64,000 bases of DNA from positions 155,370 to 219,369 of the forward strand of contig CT867988.1 of NCBI GenBank assembly GCA_000165425.1, read 5' to 3'. The translations under genes were made by a program, and so were the position numbers. The stretch is from Paramecium tetraurelia (lineage: Eukaryota). Under the pieces are notes generated by a model. The model made no database searches, was not told where the DNA came from, and saw only the letters and a program-made list of their open reading frames with translations. Shown here piece after piece: positions 2,368-61,605 of the stretch. Numbering within the stretch: the stretch's first letter is position 1; each line of letters starts with the position of its first letter.

Positions 2368-3249
2368 GTTTGTTATTAAAATTAAATTAATATGGCTATG
2401 TCGATAATGTTTCCAAATATTCGTATTTTTCAATTGAAATATTTCGAAAAGTTGTGTCCCATTTATATGATATTAAAAAATGTATGTGTAATGATTAAAT
2501 ATTATTATCTAAATGAATCAAAATTAATTTATTCTAATCTAAATCCTCTAACTGATTGTTGGCTTATCAATATAAGAAAGTTCATTCATACCAAATTATA
2601 GATAGAATTTTGAGATAATCACAGTATTGAGACTCTAGACAAATATAATTTGACACTTTTATTTTAACTAAAATAGTTAATTGTGTTTTAATGTATTTTG
2701 ATACTGCCATCAATTATATATAAGCATCAATCAGAATTTATAATAATTTTTGATTAATTATATTTCTTTTGATTTTTATTAGAGTTAATAAATTTAGACA
2801 GGTGTATAATTTTTTTTTCATCTTTAAAAGGATTAGAAAACAAAACTTTATGAAGTAAATGGCAGTAGTTTAATCAGTTTTCGTATTTATATATTTTCTA
2901 AATAGGATTTTATTAGTTGGTATTGATCTTTACATGTATTGTTAAATGAAAATCATGGCCTCTTTATTGAGATGAATAGAAGTTATGTGGTTTGATGTTT
3001 TATTAGTTATAATAAATTATTAGAGATTTAGGAATTAATTTTTACACAAAAATATAAAAAATTAGATAGAAGATAATGATTATAATGCTCAATTGAAAAA
3101 TTATAAAACTTCTTATTCATTTACATTCAAATTTTCATAATATTATATACTTCTATTAGATCTAACACAAATAAGAAAGTGGGGCTATCAGAAAAATTAG
3201 AAATTGAAGGAACAATATATTATTATTTATTTTTTACAATTGATTTTAG

Positions 3250-6200
3250 ATGCATTTGTTTAGCCATGATGAAATTAATTTATTGGAGGTATCCAAATAG
3301 AGGATTGCTAGGCCGCTTAAGATGGAAAGTTAGAGTTCATAAATAAACAGTTAATATCTTTGACATCAAAGCAATTATAGGATGCTTGCAAAAAGACAGA
3401 TTATTATGGTCGAAATGCTTTACATTATGTAAATGGATTACTAAAATAGGCTGCTTATCGAGGACATTATGACGTAGTTGAATATTTTCTTGATTTGTAG
3501 TGTATAAACATAAATTCCAAGGATAATAAAGGTAAAGAAATAGAAACTATGAATAAGGCAATACAGCGCTTATGTTAGCTTGTGTAAGAGGATATAATTA
3601 GGATATCTCAACTCTTAAATAAGGTTCTAAGTTTGCTATATGTGCCTTGCTTTTAGATAGAGGGGCATCTCTTTAAGAATTCAAGAAACATGGAATAAAT
3701 AACCCTTTACATTGGACTTGTTATTTTGGAGACTTAAAGACTACAAAATTATTGATGTCTGTGGAACCTAGTTTAAGTAATTGAATGAATTGAAATTGTA
3801 GTGATGTACTCGAATGACAAAGATTAGTTTCCAGTAGATTTGGCTTTGATGGCAGGAAAGGAGTTAGATGATAGAGTAGAGGATGAAAAGGTGTTGGAGT
3901 TTATGATAATGAAGTTCTTAGCATAGAATTTGGATAATGATGAACATAAAAGAAGGTTGGAGTTGTCGTCAGATGAACATGAATCATATAGATAATTGCA
4001 GTATATTAATTTGAACTTTAAATCAACCAAGTAATTAACCCAAGTAGGACTTCGTTACTTGTTTTGGGCAAGTACATTGGGAAGATTGGACTTAGTGGAA
4101 CCTTTGATTAATTAACGATACTCTCCTTTTGAGCCATCCTATAAGGGTAGAAGTGCTTTACATGCTGCTGTTTATCATAATAGAAAGGAGTTGGTTGAAT
4201 ATTATTTGGAGTCTGAAGCAGTGAAGGAATTCAGAACAGAGAATGTGATTAATAGGATGACAAAGGATAAACCCCAGACTGCATTGCATGTGGCTGTTGA
4301 GAAAGCACATATTGATATAGTAAAAACATTAATAAAGAAAGGAGCGGATCCTAATTAATACAATTTTCGTAATCAACGAGCTTTTGATTAGTCAAGATTG
4401 ATTGAGATTAAGCATTTGAAGAGGCAATTTATGAATCATTTGCAAAAGAATTATTTGAGATCAGGATACAATCATGTGTTGGTGGGATGGGAAAGATCAA
4501 AGAACCAATTATTGGAATAATAATTCTATAATATCTAATAAAAGAAGAATGTTGAGAAAGGAATGTTTAAATACTTGCCTATCGAATCTATAGATAAATA
4601 ATACACTTATTATTGTTTGAAGGTTGATGAGAAGCTTAAAAATTTGATAGCTGATGAAACTAAAATGATGATATACAATTCAAGGGAAGGGTACTTATGT
4701 CCATTCAACATTACTATTCAAGAGGAATTTGAAAACTTTCATCATGTTCATGATCAATAGATATTATAGACCTTATTGTATGATGAATTTGACATTGATT
4801 AATTTATTAATGATGGTCTATTGATTGAATAATATCCTGTACATGATGAGGAAGAGAAAGAATTGATTCTGAAATTTTGGAGGAATGAGAGATTTCACAT
4901 ATTATTTGAACCATTTTAATTAAAAAAATCATAAAATCGAACATTTAGTGCTTTATCTTCTTACTTTGGAGCAGAGGTAGGATTTTTTTTTGTTTTCTTA
5001 TGCTTTTTTACAACATGGCTATTTTTGCCTGCCATTCCAGGATTATTAATAGGAATATTTGATTTTGTTGGTGAAGATTCAGTATATGCCATAACTCCAA
5101 TCTATACATTGTGTATGGCTGTTTGGGCAACAATATTTTTTGAGTTCTGGAAGAGGAAATAAAGTGAAACTATGTACAATTTTGATATGCATGTTGCTAA
5201 GGAATAACGAAGAAGGATTCCTTAATACAAAGGAGCCTTTATTATTGAAGATGTCACTCACACCATTGAAATTATGGATACTAGAAATGTTTAATGGAAG
5301 TATTTTAAATCAAACACTCCCCTCGTATTTTTGGCAATCATCATTATTGGTGGTGAACAATTTGGGTATTACTATCTCAAATAAATTAATGAAGGAGATC
5401 AACTTTATGATTCATTATGGGCATGTGTCTTAGCATTTTCAATTCTTTTTACGAATGAAATCTTTAGCATTTTGGCAAAACATACATTAGTTTATGAAAA
5501 TCATCAATATCAAGATGAAAGGGAGAATGTATACATTCTAAAAGTATTTGCATTCACCTTTTTGAATTCATTTGGTCGACTATTCTATAGAAGTATCATT
5601 AAACCAGATTCCGAAGAATTAGACTTATTAAGCATGTCATTTACAATAACGTGGTCTGTCGTTCATTTGATTAGATACACTCTTTACCCATTAATATCCT
5701 TTACATTTATAAGGATTAAATTTAAATGGGATTTTAATAAATACAAATAAAGCAACTCAAAATAAATAGCTGCAGTGTAAAGAGTAAGTATCTATGATAC
5801 TGAAACCAGTGCCATAAACAAATAATCTGATAAAGGATAATCTTCTATATACTTTCTATCTTAACTTGAATTAAATAGAAGAATGATTGATCCTCCAAAT
5901 CATGTTGAATAATTTACCTATTTTGTAAATCTTGATATTAATCTAGATAATTCAATTTTGTATGGCCACTATGTTTAGTGCTGGGTCTCAAATCATTCCT
6001 ATAGCTATTTTGATTTTTAATATTCTTAATATTGAAGGTCTCCTTTATGGATATAGAAAATTTGTAAAGAGACCATTAGCTACACCAAAGAAGAGCATTG
6101 GTGTATGGAATGACATTCTGTAATTAGTTGGATATATTGGGATTGTTTCAAATTGTTTATCTATTTATCAAGCTAATTAAAAATAATTGAATTCTTTGAT

Positions 6201-6460
6201 AGGAGAAGATTCAAATTCCTCTAACGATTCTAATAATGTATTCAAAAAAATTTAATTAGCTTGGACTTCGAAACTTCTTGTTCCTTATTGTTGCAGAACA
6301 TATTGTAATTGGAATCAAATTTGTAATCGAAGGAGTAATACCAGATGAACCTGAATGGGTTGAAATGGTACTCAAAAGAGAAGAATTTTAGTCAGAAAAG
6401 AATAAGTTAAAGTAAGGGGAACATTCTAAAACTTATGAAATCAAAACAAAAAAAGAATGA
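3250..6460 (+). CDS. Ankyrin-repeat + anoctamin (TMEM16)-family membrane protein
   Basis: N-terminal ankyrin motifs (GRNALHYAAYRGH, GNTALMLACVRG, NNPLHWTCYFGD, GRSALHAAV, QTALHVAVEKAH). Anoctamin motifs YFGAEVGFFF, EFWKRKQ, YENHQYQDEREN, IIQF, KRP..SIGVWNDIL, AEHIV..IPDEPEWV. Several micro-introns; TGA 6458-6460; start approximate. Confidence 0.9.
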
Positions 6461-6493
6461 ACTTTGTTTTTATATATATAATTAATTTAACTG

Positions 6494-8203
6494 ATGAATA
6501 GCAAAACTAACTTAAGATAAATGATATCAAAAAGAACTCCTTTAAATGAAAGAGTAAACAGAAACACATACGATTAGGATGTTAAATCTACTAATAAATC
6601 ATTTACTTCTGGTAAAAAATAATCAGCTAATAAAATAAACTCGATCATTAGTGACATGCTGTCAAAACGTTAAAGTTCATAAGATATCTAAAATCCAAAA
6701 GCATCCTTGATTAGATTAGACACTAGTAATCAAAATACATCATAGAGATCTATTTCACCTACCAAACTATATCAAATGCCTGAATCACTCAAAAAAATAT
6801 ATAACTAAATCCATCAAAAATTTGCTGATTCATCCAACTCTAAAAATTTCACTAGACCAAAGTCAAAACTTCTTAAGTAAAGAACAGAAGAATCAAAGTT
6901 TTCAACTCAATGCACACCCACTTCAGATTACACTGAATAATATTTGACCAACTTAGTCAATCAAGAGGAGTGCGTCTTTACTATTTTGGCCGTTGTTACT
7001 AAACAAAGAAAAGTAGTAAAGTTGTGTTAGAATTTTCTGAATGCTATTCCCCAATCTTAAGGAGATTGCAAAGATATTATTCAATAGAAAATTGTGTGTA
7101 AACAAATGCTGTTAGAAAGAATGGGAATTTTCGTTATTATGCTCTAAGCTTTGACCCAAAATTATGAGGATGAATTATAACATATTAAGAATCTCTTACT
7201 TTATATACACAATGGTATGGTGATTTATCTAGAGTTTTTAATCAAGCAAAATCTAACTGAGGATTAGAAGCACATTCTTTAGAATAGATTAAGTAAAATA
7301 AAACAAAATAGAAGAGCGAACAAAGCAGTTTAGGATATTACTTAATTGAAGAAACATGCCAATGTTGTTCATTCATTATTAATCTTATTGTAATCATTTG
7401 AATTAAATTTGTAGCATAGAAAATTCGAGTGATTTAAAGTGTGCAAGACTGGAGAAATTGTTATAAAATATCGATTAGATTTCATTATAATAAGGCACAA
7501 TGCTAATCAAACAATAATTTGAGAAAGTCATTTGTGAAATCAATAAGATGAGGTAGACTATAGATACTAATGAAACTGAGAAGACTCTCGAATAAGAAGA
7601 AATAGAAAAACATTTGGAACTCAAAATACCTTACTTGCCAAAATTTAATGGGTATACTTTGGTGATCGATTTGGATGAAACTTTAGTTCATTATCAAGAA
7701 GTATTTTTATATGATTGATCAAGTTAGTAGATGATGGTTAATTCTTAGTTAGACCATATGCTGAACAATTCTTAATTGAAATGAGCAAATATTATGAAAT
7801 AGTGATATTCACAGCAGCATTGCAGGATTATGCAGATTTCATCCTAGATTTGATCGACAAAGACAATGTCATTTCTCATAGACTGTACAGATAGCACACT
7901 ACATAAATAGATGGAACACATGTTAAAGATTTGACATTTGTCGGTAGAGATTTAAATACAACTATCATAATTGATAATATGGCTGAAAATTTCTAGCATC
8001 AACCAGAAAATGGTATTTGCATCTAAAGTTGGTATGGCGATGAGGATGATAGAGCTTTATATTAATTGGCTCCCATTCTATCGCAAATAGTTATTAAAAA
8101 ATGCAAAGATATCAGGAATGCTTTGAGATGTCTTAGAAATTAAATGCTTGAAAACATAGAAAATGGTGTTGAAGATCCTCACTTGCATTTATCATTGAAT
8201 TGA
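6494..8203 (+). CDS. FCP1/SCP-family (CTDSPL-like) HAD phosphatase with long N-terminus
   Basis: YTLVIDLDETLVH (DxDxT), RPYAEQFL, YEIVIFTAALQDYA, KDL..VGRDL..IIIDN, QPENG; TGA 8201-8203. Confidence 0.9.
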
Positions 8204-8271
8204 TATTCTTTATGATATAATTTTAAATAATTAACTTTTATTTTCTAAAATATTAATATTATATATTAGTT

Positions 8272-9569
8272 ATGAATCTGTTATTTTGCTTATTTTTTTA
8301 TGTCCTTTTTGTCCAATCCCTAATTAAGGAATTTCAGGCTATCCATGACTTTTTATTAATTGAAATTTTCAGTGATGAATGGCCTGATATGAAAATAGAA
8401 GTCGCAGAAAACTAGCTTATCATGGGTGAAATTGCATAGGAAAGTACTCAATATTTATCCATGTATTACAAACTCAAAATTGGAGTATAATATAAATTAG
8501 ATATTTTTGTCTTGCCTGATAGTAATGTTACTATTCAAGAGGTCCCTTAGAGAAATTGTCCAAATAACTGTTCCAATCAGGGAATCTGTTAAAACTTGCA
8601 ATGCCACTGTCAATCTATGGCAGCAGGGTATAAAATGCTGATATATAAATGTAGAGATAGATGCCAATTTGAAGTTGCTTAACTCTACAATATGACTCAA
8701 TATTCTGCAAACCTAAAGCCTCATTAAACATAGATTATTGGAGTCTTTTATTAGCAGTCTCAAATGATAGATGACTAAAAGTAATAGTTTATTAAATTTT
8801 GAGTTAGACAAGAAATTTCCAAATTTAGTCATCTTCCTCTATAAATTCGTAGATTTTTCTACTTTACCCTTTTTAAAGTGCTTATTCAAATATGGTTGAC
8901 AGCAAATTGATTTATGAGGGATAGTTGAAATCAACTCCTTAGGAAATCGATTATTCTAGTAAGTTCTAAAGGTACCATATTGAAGCCAGTTACTTCACTT
9001 TTCTCTTAGTATTAAAAAACATGAATTCTCAGAAATAAGATGTCGTTCTTAAATATCAACTATTGGATAATGATTAAAAATTCCAAGATTTTATATTAGT
9101 GGCAATTCTGAGTGTAATTTCATTCATCATATTGCTGATTATAATTTATGTGGTTAGAAGAAGGTGTTAATTTTAATAATAGAGTAAAATCAAAGAAAAT
9201 CAAGAGGAGGATTTTTCAGATAATATCGCAATCTAATTCATGCCTATAGTAAATCCAGTCAAAGATTAAGTCTGTGTAATTTGTTTAGATCCATTAGATG
9301 ACAGGTTGTGTAGATAAACTCCATGCAAACATATCATGCATGATAACTGTTTAAAATAATGGATTTAAAAATAATTGAGTTGTCCCATGTGTAGAGAAAC
9401 ATTTAACGATGTAGAATACATACCCAGAGTCTTTAAGTCAAGAAATCAGACTTCCAATACATTAATTCTCAGTCACCAAGGCCAATCTATTGTATAAAGT
9501 GAACGTAATTCTGTTCGTTCTATGATCATCACTCGCACAAGATAAAGTAGATTGGCTGTTTTTTAATGA
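8272..9569 (+). CDS. Type I membrane protein: signal peptide, EGF-like domain, TM helix, cytosolic RING-H2 E3 ligase domain
   Basis: MNLLFCLFFYVLFVQS signal; CPNNCSNQGICQNLQCHCQSMAAGDRC (EGF-like, across an intron); TM FILVAILSVISFIILLIIIYVV-RRR; CVICLD..CKHIMHDNC..W..CPMCR. Confidence 0.85.
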
Positions 9570-9721
9570 AAATTGATTATTATTATAATCTTCATAGATT
9601 TTATATGTACTTCTATTGATATTCAATCTGTTATTTATGTGGATTCAATAAATTTATGTGACTAATTTAATATATTTCTATATTCACTACTAAAACATTA
9701 AATAAATTAAAATCTTTTTTA

Positions 9722-24648: not shown

Positions 24649-27398
24649 ATGAAGGAGCCTTAAAAAAACTCAATCTTAAAACTATGGCCTCACTATTAAA
24701 AAATTTTGAAATCTTCAAAATATTCTTAATGGAAGTAGAATGATTTAATTTGTAAAAGGAGCATGTTTTATCATACAGCTATTGCCTTTAGTGCCTTTTA
24801 TGTTTTAATCAGACTAATAGTAGAAATTATCAAAATAGAAAACATGATGAATATTTTTCAATTAACCCTTTTTATTGTCTTAGAGATCATAATAACATGC
24901 ATCTACACATTTTGTAAGAAAATATAGATTTACTTTCTTGCATAATATTGCTTGATTTCAGTTTATATCTTGATAACAGTATAAAATGAAGAAATAAATA
25001 AGATCTACATTTTCCTCTATATGATACTCGTTAATAGCCATTCTAACTTAATAATAAAGATTTTCCTCTATTTATATTTTATCTTCACAGTCATATTTTT
25101 TTACAAGTTTGAACCCCTTGAGATATGTCTCATATGTTCAACCGCCTTTATTCACAATTATTAGTTGGAATCTCACTTCATTGCCAATTATATAAAATAG
25201 TTAAAGCTATTATCTATTATCGAGCAAATGCCTAGTGCAGTTTGCATCGTAGATTAAAACACTAAACAGATCACATACTCCAATTCATTATTTGAGAAAT
25301 TAGCCTAAACTTTATAAGTAACAGATGAATTGGCTCAATCAATAAATAATCAGAGCAAAGAACAATAGTAAGTAGATTTTATAGAGAATTCTAAGTTTTT
25401 GTTGAATTGAAAATATGATGGATTCTCGATCTCTGATTTTATTCCATAAATAAATGATGAAGGCATAACGGACGACCAATATAAGATAGTCAATGTAGAT
25501 TTTAAAAGGTAGCCGTCATAAAATACCTTATAAAATGTAAGTTTTATGTGTCCAAATTCAGCCTCCTTAAAAAAGAAATCCAAAGATATCTTTAGTGATA
25601 TCAATACAAATGATTATTTACTCAATTCTTCTAGAAAAAGTTATGTAACAACCATACATTTGTAAATACAAATAAGTCATCAACCTAAGTCATTTATTTT
25701 GTCAGCCAAAACAAAAAGAAGGAAAAAATCATCGAATAATATGAATCTCAGCAAATAGAGTTCAAGAAATTTGGGCCAATTTACTAAAGTATAAGAAATC
25801 TAAAATTCAATATATTGCGAAAATCTGAAATTGTCTCCAAATCATACAGAAACCATGAATCATAACTTAGTGGAACATAGTGAACAATATAAATTCATTC
25901 ATGATGGATTTGGATAGTAATCGTGTACTAATCATAAAGTCAGACTTATGGTTAATTTGATATAAATCAATGATGTCTTAAATGAGAAACAAGATTATTA
26001 AATCTATTGTATTAACGAATTAAGTCCTTTGCTATTGTAATATACAGTTAAGAAATTAGAATAAGCCAAGAAAACCATAATGAGATCTTTGTCTCATGAA
26101 TTAAGAACCAGTCTAAACGCAGTGAATGGTTACATTAGTGAAGCTTACGAGAGAATAGATAATATTTAGCAACTCAACAAAAACTTAGAATTATCTTTGA
26201 AATATATTACTTTAATGTAGCTAAAACTATAAGATTTTTTTGATTACAGAGATATTTTGGAAGATCAATTTGAATTAAAGATTGAGAAATTTGATTTAAA
26301 TAGTGCCATCAATTTTTGTGTGGATTTAATCAAAGTACAATGTTACGAAAAGAAACTAAATCTCAACCTTGAAATGCCTTCAGAGACAATAATAGCCATC
26401 GGAGATAAAAATAGATTCCAGTAAGTATTGATCAATCTATTAACAAATGGAATTAAGTTCACTTCTCAAGGAGGAATAACAATTCAAGTAAGTAAGGACT
26501 TTTAATTGGATTCAATTTCATGCATAGAGGAGGTCAAGGAGATCAAATAACAATAGCTTGTGCAGATCAGAATAATCGATAGTGGCATAGGAATGAAGGA
26601 GGAGTTAAAAGGAATTCTAAATAAGAAAGTATATCAAGATTTTATTTAGTTTCTTTCGGTAGATGATGATCCAAAGATTTCAAAGGATTCAGTTGGGATT
26701 GGATTAGGTTTGAGTGTTTGCTAATATATAATTAAGGCAATGGGTCCCTAAGGTTTAAATAGTTTATTTTTGGAATCTATTATTGGAGGAGGATCGTAAT
26801 TTTATTTTTTTTTAAATTATGATGCCATACAAAAGTATCATAATGATGAAGATATTCCTGAGTCGGAAAATAAGGAATTAACTTAGGTTAGATTGAGTCC
26901 AACGAAGAGAAGTTTGCTAAAACGAAATGTATTAATTTGTCCATTAAGTTTTATTAGGCGACTTTTCCTAATACAGATTGCAATTCTAATGATATATTGA
27001 TAGTGGATGATGAACATTTCAATCTAGATATTTTATCAAATATTATTCGAAATTTGAATTCACATCATAAGAAGTATGAAATTACGATGGCTTTTAATGG
27101 TTATTAAGCTTTGGAGAAGATCTAATAAAAAAGAATACAGAATTGTTGTTGTCTTGGATTCAGGGCAATTTTGATGGACATAAATATGCCAGTTATGAAC
27201 GGTTGGGACTGTGTCAAACAAATCAGAATATTCGAAGATTAATATCAAGTTTAGAGGAAAATTCCAATTATAGCCATCACTGGATATGGAGGAAAAAAAG
27301 ACGAAGAAAAATGCCTAAAGTATGGATTTGATTGTGTATCTACAAAACCTACGAATAAATAAAAAATATTAAAGATATTTTAAGAATATAAAATATGA
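24649..27398 (+). CDS. Membrane-bound hybrid histidine kinase (multi-TM, PAS-like, HisKA, HATPase_c, receiver)
   Basis: H box SLSHELRTSLN; N box QVLINLLTNGIKFT; G1 DSGIGM; G2 GIGLGLSVC; receiver ILIVDDE, LMDINMPVMNG, PIIAITG, KP; hydrophobic N-terminal segments. Confidence 0.92.
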
Positions 27399-33046: not shown

Positions 33047-35836
33047 TCAATATTAAAGGAAAGCAATAACTAGACATATCGTTCCTAGCATCCAGGAATA
33101 ACTATTCTCAATAACTGTAGTATTAGTCACTGTTGTTCCATTGCAAGCCAAACATTTATTGGTGGTCTTATCCCAATAATAGTTTTTGGCACTGTTGATA
33201 AAACACGTATCTTCAGTTAGATCTGAAATGTTGGCTGATTGACAAGTCAACTGTATTTCTGCACAAACCTAATACTCTGTTTCACTAAAGGCAACCAAAG
33301 GGAGACAAGTACTACCAGAATTCTTGCTTTGACATGTGTATGGCTTGCAAGAACTTGAACCCCCATTACTGGGTTTTGGTGTCCATTTACAAATATCTGA
33401 TTTCTTTTTGCACCCTTTTTCGAATGAATTGGCATCTTCGCATTTAGTCATTACAGAACAAGCACTGTTATTCCAAGTGCAAACACCATCAGTTCCATCG
33501 AATCCACAACTATTCTCTGTCTTATATGATGCACATGTAGACTTAGCCACACAACTAGATGTATCTGCTAAACAATTGGCTAAGGTTGTACATTACTTGA
33601 CATCTGTGATATCAGTGCATACTTTCAATCTACATTTACTATTCACTGTATCATATATGCAAATACCATCTGATCCATATTTACATAAATCACTTATAGT
33701 GTAACCATCACATTTTTAGATATCAATGCATTTGCTAGTATCAGTTGTACATTTAACATTTGCTAATTAACAGTCCCCATGAGTTGTTTTTATTATATCA
33801 GTGCATTTTTAATCTCTACATTTTAATGTTGTTGTATCCCATTAACAAAACTTATTATCTGTTGTGATCTAACAATTATCTTGTATGGTATAAGTGGAAC
33901 ATGAACTTGATAAGTCCATGCATGTTTTTTTGTCTGAATTGACTGTGCATGTCTTTTTTTCACGGTAACATTAAAAATGAGTGGTAAAAATCATCTATGT
34001 GCATTTTGTAAACTTCTCACATATTGTATTATTGCTTTTATCAAGGTTTCTTACACAATCTCCATCTGTACCAATATAACATCCAGTTTATTGTGTTTTT
34101 GCACAACTTGTAATTGGAACACATTTTGTACCATCAGTTGTGCACTTGCTATTTGCTAGATTACAAAACTAATGAGTTGTACCAGGCAAACTAGTGCAAT
34201 CCAAAAAAAGGAAACATTAACTATCAATCCATAAACAAGGTCCCTCTTTTGAAATAACACAACTAAGTGAAAGTTTATAGTCACTACATTTGGCTGCTTA
34301 AGCAATGCATTTGGTGCCATCAGAAGTACAAGTATCTAATTAGTCGTTGCATTCAGAATGACTAATGTAGACAAGATCAGAGCAAGTCTTAACTTTGCAT
34401 GCAGAACTTAACCAAAGGCATTTCTGTTTTAATGAATCAGTTTTGCAAGCAGGTTCTGTTTTCATATCAGTACATGTTCCACTAGAAGAACATCCTGCTC
34501 CAGTTGTGTAACATTTATCTAGATATTTGTTGCATGCATCATCAGTAGTCATAGATGTTGGGGCATTAGCACAAGTAAATGATACACATTTGCTGTCCTA
34601 CCATATACATGTACCTAATTTAGTACATAACTGTGATGTTAATGCATCTGTACATTATTTTTTAACACATTTAGTCTATCCAGCATTAGCAGTGCAAATA
34701 CTTAAGAATTTATTACAATTTTCAGATGTATAGGTATCAACTTAAGCATTATCACAATCATAATTAACACATAATTGTTTAGACTTATTCCAATAGCATT
34801 GGTGTCCCTCAATAGTAGAAACACATTATGTGACATATTGATATGATGAGCATTCTGTTTCTCTCGTTTTACATCCGAGGTTGTCATCATCAATGGTACA
34901 AGTGGCTAAGAATTTGGAGCACAATTGATCATTTGTGTAATCATCCGAAGCTTGAGTACAAATGTAATCAACACATTTCCCAACATCTTTGCCCTCCACT
35001 TAAGTGACAAGCCAAAGACAATTTCCTTACACTCCTATTTTGCATGTGTCATTAAACTTATAATTGACGCATTCATCTTTATCTTTACATGTATTTGATA
35101 TGCCTTCCGATGTTTCTGCCAATACACAGTTGTCTTTATAGTTCTGACAATCATCAACTGTTTTACCGTTTCCATTTGCACAAGTGTAATCGTAACATGT
35201 ACTTGTTGTTTCATTCCACTTGCATTCCATGCTTTGATCCAAATTAGTTACACATTATGATTTCGTTTTTTAATCACTACAGTTCTTTCCTGAATCAACA
35301 CATCCTGAATTGGTTTCATTAACAGTGCAATTTGAGAGTTTTGAACGGCATTCTTAATTTGTTTTTAAAGTCGTAGGTAAATTCTTACAAGCAGTAACAG
35401 TTTTACATTGAGGTTTCGCTGCATCACTTTCATCATAATAACAATATTGTTAAGCACTATCAATGTAGCATGATGTCTTAGTTAAGTAAGTATCACAAGT
35501 AGATAAAGGGACACACCTTTCCCCATCCGATGTACACATATCAAATATATTATTACAAGCATCAAATGTCTTACCCAAATAAGCTGTACATCCAGCAAAC
35601 ATTTGACATTAATTCTCATACAGAGCACATCCTTAAACCGGACATTTAGCTATTGTGCTTGCTAATTTACAATACGTTTCCTGCTCTCTATCCTTGCATT
35701 GACCATTCTCATATTTGCATTGTATTCTTTTACAATCGGTTTCGTTCTGAATTTCACTACAGGTGCATCCCTTGTCCAAAACAGTATCACCCCTTATCTA
35801 TATCACTAAGACTAGTAAGATTATTTTTCTTAACAT
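33047..35836 (-). CDS. Cys-rich GPI-anchored surface-antigen-like ('mini-antigen') protein, 929 aa
   Basis: Intronless 2790-nt frame; signal MLRKIILLVLVIQIRG; periodic Cys repeats with CxW motifs as in Paramecium surface antigens; C-terminal SYSWMLGTICLVIAFLQY GPI-type signal. Confidence 0.9.
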
Positions 35837-37514
35837 TAATTATTATTTGAATCAAAATAATCTCTGATTTACTATTCAATTTATATACATTTAGTCATCC
35901 ATCTAATACTTATAAATTTTTGTAAACAATCAACTTGTGTTATTCACTATCATAAACATCCATTACCATTCTCACATCAGATCACAAATTTATATTATTT
36001 CATTTATTATAAGCTCAATCAATATTTTATCTTCTGTCCATTCATTGTTTAAACACCATTTATACTAATATTGTCCTAAATGCATATTTGTATCGTACTT
36101 CAGCTCTTATACTAATTTCACTATATTTTGCTGCTTCGATCATCCAATATATATTCCTAAATTTCGATTCTACAAATCTTAAACAACCTCAAACTAACGG
36201 TATCCTTACAAATTTAATACTTTGTCGCTTCAAAATGAAAAATCTTAATAAATTATATTGTCAACCACTATTGGTTCTCAAATTAATAGCGCAAATCTTT
36301 ACTAAATTGGTTTAATTTAATTACTATCCTTTTTTTGATTTTTATTATATTACTGTAATAAATAGTTTCACCGTTTTTCTAAATCTACGTTTTTTAGGTA
36401 TATTGTGTTGTTATTTATAATTCTATCTTCCTTGAATTCTTTTTATAATTACAATCCGTTAAGTTAACTAGGCTACTTCGTCATTTTATTAGGTTTTATT
36501 CCACTAAAATTACTATATTACACAACAGTAGTTACGAATATCAATTATATATGTTGATTCCTACCACGAGGTTATCATATCGAAACAAAAAATCTAATAG
36601 AAATATATTATTGAAATCTCTTAAAATAACAAAACTAATTAATATTGTATTGTTAATTTCACACTCTATGTTTAATGAATATGTTATAGGCATATTAATA
36701 AAGATCTTAAATCCTCAATCTTGAATGCTTAATTTTTAATTATTATTTCTTTATAACCTATCTAGAGAGATATAACATGAGAAAACGAAAACATCATTTA
36801 TTACTAATCCTGAATTAGATACCTATTTTTAAAACTCTTTAAAATAATAAGATTTTATTCTATAAATAAATTGAAAAAATAATAAATTTCAATTGGTTCT
36901 TATTATCAGACTCAATCTATATTATTTAATTTTCTTTGGATACTTTTCGTATTAGTTTTGAATCAAAGAATCTTCAAAATGGAATATAAATTACTCGAAT
37001 TATTTAGGTTTCTATTAGTAATACTAAGAACTATTATTAAAAAGTGTGAACTATTGGCTTGAAATTGTGATATTATTAATGTTTATTCATAAATGATATC
37101 CAATTTAGATGAAATTATCTTTAAATGAGGATGTCAGTTATTTTTATCAAATAGTTCGTTTGTTTGGATTGATTTATATTTTATAATAATATTCGAATTT
37201 AAAATTTAATTATTGATAAGTACAAAGAATTTAAAATTAAGATGGGTGAGCTAAAGAATATATGATGCATTTTAATTATAGTTTTGAAAGTGTTATCAAA
37301 TATTTAAAGATATGAAAATGGTTCAATTTAAAATAAGATTTTTATCTTTATGATAAATTTAATATTCCTCTAATCTAATACACCCATATTAATAGGTAAA
37401 AATATAAAGAATAGACTTGTGAATACTCTTTGTGATCAGATATGATACTTAAATAATTAACATCATAATTAAATTAATTAACTTTTCTTAGAAAATGATA
37501 ATTAAACAAAATAA

Positions 37515-39702: not shown

Positions 39703-42238
<2,536 letters not shown>

Positions 42239-44318: not shown

Positions 44319-46006
44319 ATGAATTAATAATTCAAATGGTTGAAGTAACGTCCAACAAAAGGCTTGGCCTTTCCCACTTCAAGAGAGGGAGCCACGCTTA
44401 CTTATATTCCCAAATATCAAAGCGTAGTTTTATTTGGGGGAATATGTAATGGAAGATTAAATGAAATTATGATTTTTGATATTCAAAAAGATGAATGGAA
44501 AGTTTAGCAAACTCAAGGAAGACAACCTTCACCAAGATGTTATCATAGTGGTTTTTATGATGGTAATAACTAAATATTTATTCCGTATAGAAAGTTAGAA
44601 TGTCATATACTATTATGGTGGATAGGCTGATAAAGGTAGATCTTTGACAGATTTTTATTGTCTAAGCTTTCAAAATTTTGTATGGAAGAGACTATTTTTA
44701 TTGGAAAGTCCTCCGAATAGACATAATCATACAATGTGTGATTTGCCTGGAATGGAAAAGATCATATTTGGAGGAGCATGCCTTCCTGAAGATTTGATGT
44801 ATAATGATGTTTGGATATTTAATTATTCAGCCATTCAATTTACGAATCAGCAAGAAATCCCTGGAGCAGTAGCAACTAAGAAAAATTGTAAAGGAGAACA
44901 TCCAGCTCCAAGACAAGGACATGGGGCTGTAGTATATTAAAATAATATGTTTGTGTTTGGTGGTAAATGCTCAGATGAAACTACTCAATTATATAAGTTG
45001 TCTTTGGATAATTATTAATGGAAAAGAATATTGCATTTAGGTAAGGCACCAGGCACAAGGGCCTTTTTCTCTACTAGTTTGATCAAAGACAATGTTATAA
45101 TATTTGGTGGAATTGATAACGTAGCTAATAAGGTCCTAAATGAGACTTACTTATTAAATTTAACTGACTATCATTGGAGTTCTCCTTTTACTGCTGGGCC
45201 CATTCCTTCTCCCAGATATTCACATTGTAGTTGCTAAATAGAAGACATTATCCTAATAATGGGAGGAATCGAATAAACTTATTGTTCTATGGATATGTAT
45301 TTTTTGTCTTAAGGATCTATTAACTAAAATGCTGAATGGGAGCAATTAAAAGAACCGACTGAATTGGAAAAGCAAACCAACGATGCAGCTAATCAAATAA
45401 TTATGGAAGGCAAAATGTACTTGAATTAAATTGAAGAAGCAATGATGAAAGAACGATAAAAAATAACTGATCTTCAAAAAGAGGTTTAGAATTTATAAGA
45501 AGAAGCAGATAATCTAGATACACATATCAAAAAGTAAACAGCAATAGTTATGGGTGAACATCAAAAAGCATCGCAGAATAATAAAAACAAAGAGATTGCC
45601 ATAGAGACCATCTTTTTAATGATTAAATAAGAATAAACACTCACAAAATAACTCAATTACAAATGTTAACAATTAGAGGAATGCATATAGAATTCATATC
45701 CACTATTACATACTCTTGACTAATTCTATTAGTCGATTCGATAAAGTATATTAATACTCTATATTAAAAGTTTAAGGTTCCGATCCTGCTGATCTCAAAG
45801 TTAAAAAAATGGCTGATCAATTTGCCAATGATATTCAAAAGGCTAAAGAAGCTTAACTTGAATCTCTTAGCAACATTTATGCCGTTTATTAAAAATTTAC
45901 AGCATTATCGAATAGAAATGAGGTTGAATTGAATTAATGGCGAGACAATGTGAAAGATATGAACAATGATTTTGAATAATTAATATTTGAAACTGAACAT
46001 GATTGA
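44319..46006 (+). CDS. Kelch-repeat protein with C-terminal coiled coil
   Basis: Repeated PxxRxxH..FGG..D/N.W motifs (PSPRCYH, PPNRHNH, PAPRQGH, PSPRYSH), then E/K/Q-rich heptad-like region; TGA 46004-46006. Confidence 0.9.
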
Positions 46007-60172: not shown

Positions 60173-61605
60173 TCAAAGAACTTGTTATTAATCATTCTCT
60201 TATCCAAATTGTGGGACATTATTTTGCTTTTAATTAATAGCCGACTTGACATTTTCATAACCACCGGTACTTAAGATAGGTGGTAACAACTAATAATCAA
60301 ATCCCCCTCCCCCACATTGAGCATAATCCAACCCTTTTTCTTCAACTTCTGGAGTCACATTTAGCAATCCCAATATCTTTAATACAAATATCACAATTGC
60401 ATGCAATACGACAGACCATCCTAACCAAACTACAGTACCTAGGAGTTGAATTCCCCATTATTTAGCTCCATGTCCATAAAATATTCCTTTTTCTGTATTA
60501 AACCACCCTGGAAATTGAGCACCAATTAGACCACACCCTCCATGTATTGGAAAAGCATCAACTGGATCGTCAACTTTAAATTTATGCATTAAGATTCCGA
60601 ATCCCCAATATGTCAAACCTCCCAAAATTCCAATTACAAAGGCAGCCCATAATTCAATTCCATCACAAGAGCCAGTTACTGCAACCAATCCTGCCAAATT
60701 TCCATTGCATATCATTACTAAACTGAACTTGCTCTTCTCATTTCTATTTTTATAGTAGTGTAAAACCATTAATGTTAATCCTCCTGAAGCTCCTGCTATG
60801 ATTGTATTCGTTGTAGCTCTTCCTGCAGCATAAGCCATTGTACCTGACAAGGCAGTGGTACTTCCAGCATTGAAAAATATCCAACATGTGTAAAGTGAAA
60901 GAGTAGATAAACAAATATATGTTGTATTGCTTGGATTAAATTCATTTGCATATTTTTCATTCCATCTGTTTTTCCTTGCTCCTAACATTACTGTCAACAC
61001 CAATGCTCCCAATGCAGACATAAAGTGAATTGTACCGCTACCAGCCAAATCAATATAGCCTAGATCTTGAAGCCAACCTCCTCCCCAAGTCCAATGAGCA
61101 CAAATTGGATAAATAAACGAAGAAAATGCTACGCTCAAAAAGCAATAACCGATAATTGACATTCTTTCCACTGCTCCTCCAGATACGATACTATTAGCTG
61201 CAGCTCCAACTGACGTTTACAAAACTTATATATAACTTATAATTGTGTACCCCAATGAGAGTAATGCTTAGTTCCAGCAAAATTACTTCCAGCATAGAAG
61301 TCTGTCCCAGCAAATTTTCCAGATCCCATGCAAATTCCATATCCAACCTAATATATTAACATTCAATTTACAAGCCACCAGCAAATGACAGCAATACATG
61401 TATTTAGATAGACTTTTATCATAATTGATTACATATTTTTATATCTTACACACCCACCCTCTAAAAATGCAAATCCAAGTTGCATCAACAAAACAACAAT
61501 CCTAATCTATTTTATAAGTATATACCCTGCAAATTAAGTCCAAAAATAGTCTATTGTATTTTCTAACAATCCCAATTTGTCTTCAACTGAAAAATCTGTT
61601 GACAT
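60173..61605 (-). CDS. AMT: Ammonium transporter (Amt/Mep family)
   Basis: MQLGFAFLEGGCVRYKN, IVSGAVER, IYPICAHWTWGGGWL, DLAGSGTIH, FFNAGS, NGNLAGLVAVT, DDPVDAFPIHG. Confidence 0.96.

Follow-up and report, generated by a model that had tools for sequence, protein, structure and literature searches.

An ankyrin–anoctamin fusion gene of Paramecium tetraurelia lacking the principal TMEM16 Ca2+ site, and its relatives in ciliates and oomycetes

The window analysed here is a 64,000-nt stretch of Paramecium tetraurelia DNA (assembly GCA_000165425.1, contig CT867988.1, positions 155,370 to 219,369, forward strand), and the gene at 3250..6460 on its + strand encodes an ankyrin array joined to a TMEM16 (anoctamin) membrane protein. 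Read from ATG to TGA under genetic code 6, the gene has seven exons (3250-3288, 3312-3428, 3450-3531, 3558-3776, 3802-5924, 5947-6237 and 6260-6460) and six GT-AG introns of 21-26 nt (3289-3311, 3429-3449, 3532-3557, 3777-3801, 5925-5946 and 6238-6259), whose removal leaves a 3072-nt frame of 1023 codons, hence a protein of 1023 amino acids, with a single terminal TGA. The model as a whole is backed by relatives P0001-P0006 and by sense-strand RNA reads; the introns are placed not by reads but by the frame, by annotated relatives and, for the 22-nt GTA..TAG intron inside transmembrane helix (TM) 7 at 5925..5946, by a frame break at the same place of TM7 in all five paralogues. Under code 6 the 21-nt intron at 3429-3449 keeps the frame and contains no stop; in the annotation of the paralogue P0004 its equivalent stays in, and in the other relatives it is spliced. 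The same architecture is annotated in P. primaurelia, P. sonneborni, P. pentaurelia, P. tetraurelia and P. octaurelia (six of eight matches); of the other two matches, one is an incomplete model from P. primaurelia and one an unnamed protein.

An earlier note on this DNA had proposed that one gene carries both parts and had put a 22-nt intron at about 5925-5946, and the present analysis agrees on both points. No stop interrupts the exon at 3802..5924 (+), which takes in the later part of the ankyrin array, the cytosolic TMEM16 domain and the membrane region from TM1 to the start of TM7, and matches to Pfam ankyrin families and to Anoctamin (E 4e-46) lie within one unbroken frame at 3789-6032, so that the fusion is independent of the intron calls. 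Since a single exon holds ankyrins and TM1-TM7, separate genes or an annotation artefact were ruled out.

RNA reads and substitution rates show that the gene is expressed and kept by purifying selection. In one study, three oligo-dT runs gave 92, 108 and 57 RNA reads on 2900-8400, every one on the sense strand; they span both halves of the gene at a depth of 0-4.5, at which no splice joint reached the listing threshold, and none falls within 2900-3083. Comparison with the nearest paralogue yielded 0.069 nonsynonymous (dN) and 0.835 synonymous (dS) substitutions per site, a ratio of about 0.08 in the ankyrin part and the membrane part alike; the estimate comes from this closest paralogue only, dS being saturated for the two others tried. 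A decaying pseudogene was ruled out by the lack of stops, by this ratio and by the RNA reads, and the relaxed selection that the earlier note had considered was not seen.

Residues ~6-362 (3250..4430, +) form the ankyrin array, as delimited by Pfam, by an alignment of 12 N-termini and by a structure model. The model was made for the relative P0002 from a 70-sequence alignment, and not for the window protein (predicted local distance difference test, pLDDT, 87; predicted template-modelling score, pTM, 0.84); an earlier one built from eight sequences (pLDDT 45.8) was not used. It predicts eight ankyrin helix pairs with helical insertions, plus a probable cap, ahead of the TMEM16 fold, close to the seven or eight repeats counted initially. 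Aligned repeat by repeat, the 12 N-termini, which come from ciliates, from oomycetes and from unnamed sources, are colinear and carry repeat-specific signatures, and family-specific Trp and Cys positions are preserved from ciliates to oomycetes, which fits a binding surface.

Residues ~366-1010 (4440..6400, +) correspond, according to Foldseek and VIA-align, to a TMEM16 fold with a cytosolic alpha/beta domain and ten helices. Three exon pieces matched Pfam Anoctamin (PF04547) with 158, 71 and 31 bits (cut-off 28). The P0002 model found TMEM16K (6r7x) as its best Foldseek match (E 5e-22), and VIA-align superposed it on TMEM16F (6qp6) with Z 39.1 and a root-mean-square deviation of 2.8 over 556 positions, and on TMEM16K with Z 37.2 and 2.6 over 578. 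All 50 structural matches listed were TMEM16 proteins. No Pfam match to TMC or OSCA was obtained, and neither was among the fold matches listed, where TMEM16 entries fill the places. Judged on the modelled relative, the protein has a complete TMEM16 fold after the ankyrins and is probably not a TMC or an OSCA. TMC and OSCA/TMEM63 belong to the same anoctamin superfamily, their Ca2+ ligands are not conserved and TMC is tethered by ankyrin; the window protein, instead, scores as Anoctamin and its fold matches TMEM16. Its closest matches, TMEM16K/anoctamin-10 (PDB 5oc9, 6r7x) and TMEM16F (6qp6), have in common with it the cytosolic domain, the ten helices, the TM4-TM5 scrambling region and the auxiliary site, whereas both keep all five principal acids, are activated by Ca2+ and have no ankyrin array. 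The TM4-TM5 region retains the ENH..N pattern of TMEM16K, with groove motifs that are invariant within the window's family, and the best matches, by sequence and by Foldseek, are scramblases.

The principal Ca2+ site of TMEM16A is formed by five acids, E654, E702, E705, E734 and D738, according to the accessible part of PMC6195346. In the window protein none of the five is acidic. The TM6 positions (5664..5678, +) carry H774 at the Asn and Y778 at the Glu (E654 of TMEM16A, E624 of TMEM16F), those of TM7 (5910..5921, +) Q856 for E702 and Y859 for E705, and those of TM8 (6028..6042, +) N888 for E734 and L892 for D738. Window TM8 aligns without gaps to mouse TMEM16A 707-779, and so does TM7-TM8 of the spliced relative P0002, with the same residues at these positions, to 702-778. 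The TM6 register was set by the TMEM16K alignment and by alignment columns; the ligand columns of TM6-TM8 read N-E-E-E-E-D in 53 of 120-odd rows, most of them from vertebrate ANO3/ANO4, and this confirms the register. Ligands concealed by mis-splicing were ruled out, since the four TM7-TM8 positions flank the TM7 intron and align gap-free. The five acids are likewise absent from all six full-length members of the window's family. From sequence, the principal site is lost, and the earlier reading of it (Q and Y for the TM7 acids, N and L for those of TM8, Y on TM6, and no gap against TMEM16A) stands; orthologues that keep the acids, which the note had allowed for, were not found, the relatives being without the site too. 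Two acids lie nearby: by sequence register, E855 is one position and E890 two positions away from the ligand face, and E890 or an Asp is retained in all six family members.

Beside this site, TMEM16 proteins have an auxiliary one between TM2 and TM10, made up of E425, K428, D879 and D884 in TMEM16A and including E395 and D859 in TMEM16F; the accessible text of PMC8835819 describes it as modulating and not as sufficient. Its predicted counterpart in the window protein is complete, with E600 and K603 on TM2 (5142..5153, +; TMEM16F E395, TMEM16A E425 and K428) and E981 and D986 on TM10 (6329..6346, +; TMEM16F S854 and D859, TMEM16A D879 and D884), all four present in six of six family members. 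The D879 position is acidic in the two Paramecium families whose main site is the most eroded, and Ala or Ser in most other rows. The pore differs as well. Counted on the alignment, T738 (5556..5558, +) stands at the TM5 position of TMEM16A K588, a lysine of anion conduction, and W770 (5652..5654, +) at the TM6 lysine position, K616 of TMEM16F by count, which we take to be equivalent to K645 of TMEM16A. The window protein thus aligns without gaps to TMEM16A/ANO1 over TM7-TM8 and yet has neither its Ca2+ site nor its two pore lysines. Such lysines are used by TMEM16A for anion conduction (PMC6195346, in the part available), and their absence, together with the TMEM16K-like TM4-TM5, would favour lipid or non-selective groove transport over an anion channel.

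Relatives were collected with a profile of five full-length proteins against 1.84 billion representatives; the best 150 of 433 matches at 1e-30 were examined. Among 157 relatives, 70 have an anoctamin domain, and 32 of these 70 show an ankyrin profile match, namely the seven from Paramecium and 25 more. Because an ankyrin profile of our own (33 residues) lacked power on oomycete proteins, Pfam was used for these, and it confirmed ankyrins in 18 of 30 proteins scanned, chosen mostly as candidates. In automatic annotation the architecture is visible, as in an ESM Atlas cluster where 94% of the 53 members have ankyrins. Oomycete orthologues occur in Phytophthora, Nothophytophthora, Pythium, Globisporangium, Lagenidium, Albugo, Saprolegnia, Achlya and Aphanomyces. 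The fusion had been taken for a ciliate peculiarity; it does recur across Paramecium species, but that view is too narrow given the oomycete orthologue. No named ciliate protein from outside Paramecium, Tetrahymena included, turned up in the word- or rank-limited searches. Nine ankyrin-anoctamins (P0022, P0035, P0054, P0080, P0095, P0103, P0119, P0135 and P0136) stop partway through the membrane domain, in some cases on a longer contig, which introns or a reassigned stop codon could explain; two other proteins (P0018 and P0094) hold several tandem anoctamin domains and may be assembly chimeras.

A scan of the Paramecium genome (72.1 Mb, 697 contigs) reduced 62 matches to about 40 clear anoctamin loci, of which 17 bear ankyrins. 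These 17 fall into three families, that of the window gene with six members, a second with seven and a third with four. Ankyrins are absent from 14 other anoctamin regions examined with long flanks, and eight loci were seen with a 1.5 kb flank only. Three further loci, L041 (G000:C47), L042 (G000:C358) and, weakly, L040 (C191), match Anoctamin weakly with another TM7-TM8 pattern and probably represent another branch of the superfamily. The third family (L043-L046; C524, C72, C324 and C491) has a C-terminal B-box-like zinc finger in common with most oomycete orthologues (e.g. P0224 and P0235), with Pfam scores under the cut-off except in P0145; the finger is missing from the window's family. 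Other modules added in relatives are EF-hands between TM6 and TM7 (P0051), a B-box (P0145) and, in unnamed ankyrin-anoctamins, a C-terminal cyclic-nucleotide (cNMP)-binding domain (P0042, P0108 and P0169).

A tree of the membrane part, from which 14 partial or multi-domain proteins had been excluded, placed every ankyrin-bearing row on one branch (44 of 83 rows) with a support of 92 in the Shimodaira–Hasegawa-like approximate likelihood ratio test (SH-aLRT), rising to 99 when the sister P0067, an incomplete protein that keeps five acids, is included. The two values were 85 and 99 after removal of the ligand columns and 17 rows, and 81 and 98 under a mixture model with 44 rows (a quick tree without bootstrap); long branches are a caveat on all these trees. 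A clade produced artificially by shared ligand loss seems unlikely, as the branch survives removal of the ligand columns and a degenerate Paramecium clade without ankyrins stays outside it. The tree also put on the branch four unlabelled Paramecium loci, all of which then proved to have ankyrins upstream, and P0115, whose full-length cluster mate has them. Six members have no Pfam ankyrin (P0008, P0026, P0048, P0068, P0132 and P0145), some being visibly truncated. On these sequences, a single origin in the stramenopile–alveolate ancestor or earlier would be the simplest reading.

The site is eroded throughout this branch. Five intron-split loci were left out; of its 39 rows with an unbroken TM6-TM8, six keep none of the acids, 19 keep one, 11 two and three rows three, and none keeps four or five; among 39 rows outside, five acids are kept in 25, four in one and three or fewer in 13. 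The rows are related and were collected by likeness to the query, so the counts are not independent. In the roughly 36 oomycete orthologues, the first TM7 position is Lys wherever the row is complete, and the TM6 position is mostly Arg; yeast IST2 shows this charge replacement too. At least eight paralogues in the Paramecium genome keep all four TM7-TM8 acids. The two key TM2/TM10 acids are found in 25 of 39 rows inside the clade versus 24 of 39 outside, so they may be retained as structural or family background.

We regard the ankyrin-anoctamins of ciliates and oomycetes as an apparently undescribed subfamily of TMEM16. Loss of the site has a precedent in IST2; none was found for the fusion. 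In open-licence literature, as far as titles and the starts of abstracts tell, we found no paper describing an ankyrin–anoctamin fusion. The main text of a superfamily survey (PMC5868767) makes no mention of ankyrin, ciliate, Paramecium or Tetrahymena, none of the 21 ankyrin mentions in a catalogue of oomycete fusions (PMC2705460) has an anoctamin label, and nothing was found in the readable supplements of PMC3091696. A Stentor preprint mentions, in its accessible part, an anoctamin without ankyrins.

What could such a protein do? The reading that we tentatively favour, a real possibility though still short of probable, is that Ca2+ at TM6-TM8 has ceased to open the TMEM16 groove, which most likely passes lipids and is joined to an ankyrin arm that docks a conserved partner. 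A principal site without charges should allow neither the gating of TM6 by Ca2+ nor the electrostatic gate that PMC6195346 describes. The five charges would have been swapped for neutral or bulky residues, leaving TM6 held by packing instead of bound ions and without an electrostatic gate; the groove would pass lipids, and perhaps ions non-selectively, in the manner of IST2; and the array would be an arm on which a conserved partner docks. This partner would decide where the protein resides, be it cortical membranes, contact sites or the ciliary base, and might also switch it. Substrate, activity state, role of the ankyrins and location we infer. IST2 misses three acids, scrambles without Ca2+ and is a constitutive scramblase and tether, as stated in the part of PMC12618243 at hand, a precedent which makes the second option of the earlier note, a scramblase, the likelier one. 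The EF-hand, cNMP-binding and B-box additions in relatives are in line with a shift of control to cytosolic modules, and dN/dS is equally low in the membrane and ankyrin halves.

IST2 (PDB 9qja, 9hhe) is likewise a TMEM16 protein without the principal site, joined to a large cytosolic arm. It differs in keeping two acids, bridged by Lys, and in having a disordered C-terminal tether, where the window protein has no basic ligand residue and a short helical C-terminus. It is a distant match (E 1e-31 versus 1e-144 for TMEM16K) and stands outside the trees, and the site loss would be independent of it.

Several observations weigh against the scramblase reading. E654Q alone silences TMEM16A rather than opening it (PMC6195346, accessible part), so that constitutive activity does not follow from ligand loss alone. 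The compensating Lys or Arg that IST2 and the oomycete proteins have at the ligand positions is missing from the window's family, W770 may block the groove, the predicted auxiliary site is intact, and an identity of ~22% to scramblases does not tell channel from scramblase. Nor are ankyrins required for loss of the ligands: 11 of the 13 outside rows with three or fewer acids form one Paramecium clade without ankyrins. The members of this clade (L011, L013-L016, L019, L020, L023, L025, L029 and L039) often have Lys or Arg at the TM6 Glu and possess a long N-terminus, in which those scanned contain no Pfam family.

The intact auxiliary site bears on another explanation, which we consider unlikely, namely that Ca2+ control is retained through a different sensor: the auxiliary site, the neighbouring acids E855 and E890, or a calmodulin or EF-hand partner on the ankyrins or the TM6-TM7 loop. 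The match of E600, K603, E981 and D986 to the auxiliary site, the acid at D879 in the two Paramecium families with the most eroded main site (mostly Ala or Ser elsewhere), the EF-hands inside the anoctamin domain of P0051 and the constancy of E890 or Asp in the family all point that way, and nearby replacement residues have been suggested for other families by Medrano-Soto et al. (PMC5868767, in the part available). However, the TM2/TM10 acids are about as frequent outside the clade as inside, so their retention may be structural, the auxiliary site is not described as sufficient (PMC8835819, accessible text), and E855 and E890 stand off the ligand face. The label 'Ca2+-independent' given in the earlier note therefore need not apply to the protein, whose auxiliary site is complete and which may be under Ca2+ control through a partner.

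A rather improbable alternative, by analogy, is the mechanosensor of the earlier note: a tether-gated mechanosensitive channel in which the fused ankyrins would link pore and cortical cytoskeleton, as if the complex of TMC or ANOH-1 with CIB and ankyrin had been condensed into one chain. In the accessible parts of the sources, worm TMC-1 (PMC7343241) and ANOH-1 (PMC11830769) both require ankyrin, and superfamily members without the site (PMC5868767), TMC and CSC/OSCA, include mechanosensors. In touch, C. elegans ANOH-1 works with the ankyrin UNC-44 and CIB, the giant ankyrin being separate there and fused here. The pTM of the P0002 model suggests a defined geometry from ankyrins to membrane, 17 copies exist in a touch-responsive ciliate, and all named carriers among the matches listed are ciliates or oomycetes. 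The carrier oomycetes form zoospores. Ankyrin arrays also sit on the transport proteins NompC/TRPN, TRPA1, TRPV and plant AKT1, with an unrelated pore fold, and NompC and TRPA1 match the ankyrin part only. The array here has 8-9 repeats, against 28 in NompC/TRPN as listed (29 in the usual count), and the short arrays of TRPV, TRPC and AKT1 are docks for ligands or partners. The transcript level is low, and the TM6 lysine needed for ANOH-1 touch currents (PMC11830769, in the part available) is Trp here.

More doubtful again is the wider version of this idea, that an ancient stramenopile–alveolate subfamily moved its gating from Ca2+ to a fused ankyrin tether, is used in ciliated cells and zoospores, and would supply part of the mechanoreceptor conductance of Paramecium, whose channels are, to our knowledge, unidentified. 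A tie between the oomycete orthologue and flagella is, at this stage, a lead only. Among the named matches of 47 orthologue-level rows, from a search with a length window, there is no named downy mildew, while a canonical anoctamin of Bremia appears in another listing; the flagellated Plasmopara is likewise missing from these rows, and PMC3471859 does not name the gene in its text or three supplements.

Least probable is a transport-dead scaffold or regulatory subunit, whose TMEM16 body would anchor the ankyrin arm or heterodimerise with Ca2+-gated paralogues: complete neutralisation without basic compensation, Trp at a groove-facing TM6 position, the paralogues with four intact TM7-TM8 acids in the same genome and the inactivity of TMEM16A E654Q (PMC6195346, accessible part) agree with it, but the family shows no variation in its TM4-TM5 groove motifs, and its membrane part is under the same constraint as its ankyrins.

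TMEM16, TMC and OSCA proteins have one fold and different openers, and what is at issue is the route from a Ca2+-gated, ancestor-type protein to gating by force or by a partner. On a single ankyrin branch within TMEM16, the subfamily offers a natural series with three, two, one and no acids, IST2-like Lys/Arg, and added EF-hand, cNMP-binding and B-box modules. Paramecium can be studied by RNA interference, electrophysiology and touch behaviour, and the oomycete orthologue is genetically simpler than 17 paralogues. If the protein were a constitutive scramblase with a folded docking arm, it would be a second, independent case and extend IST2 well beyond yeast.

Other genes were noted in the window. 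The next one (6500-8200, +) begins ~30 nt past the stop, is transcribed on the same strand and ends in a NIF/FCP-type phosphatase domain. It is followed by a membrane-anchored RING-finger protein (8300-9570, +) and by what, read by eye, is presumably a ribosomal protein L12 gene (9722-10276, +). Farther along lie genes for a protein with a histidine-kinase-type ATPase domain (25411-27000, +), a Paramecium surface-antigen-domain protein (33050-35851, −), a protein kinase (39706-40938, −), a kelch protein (44473-45792, +) and an ammonium transporter (60176-61582, −).

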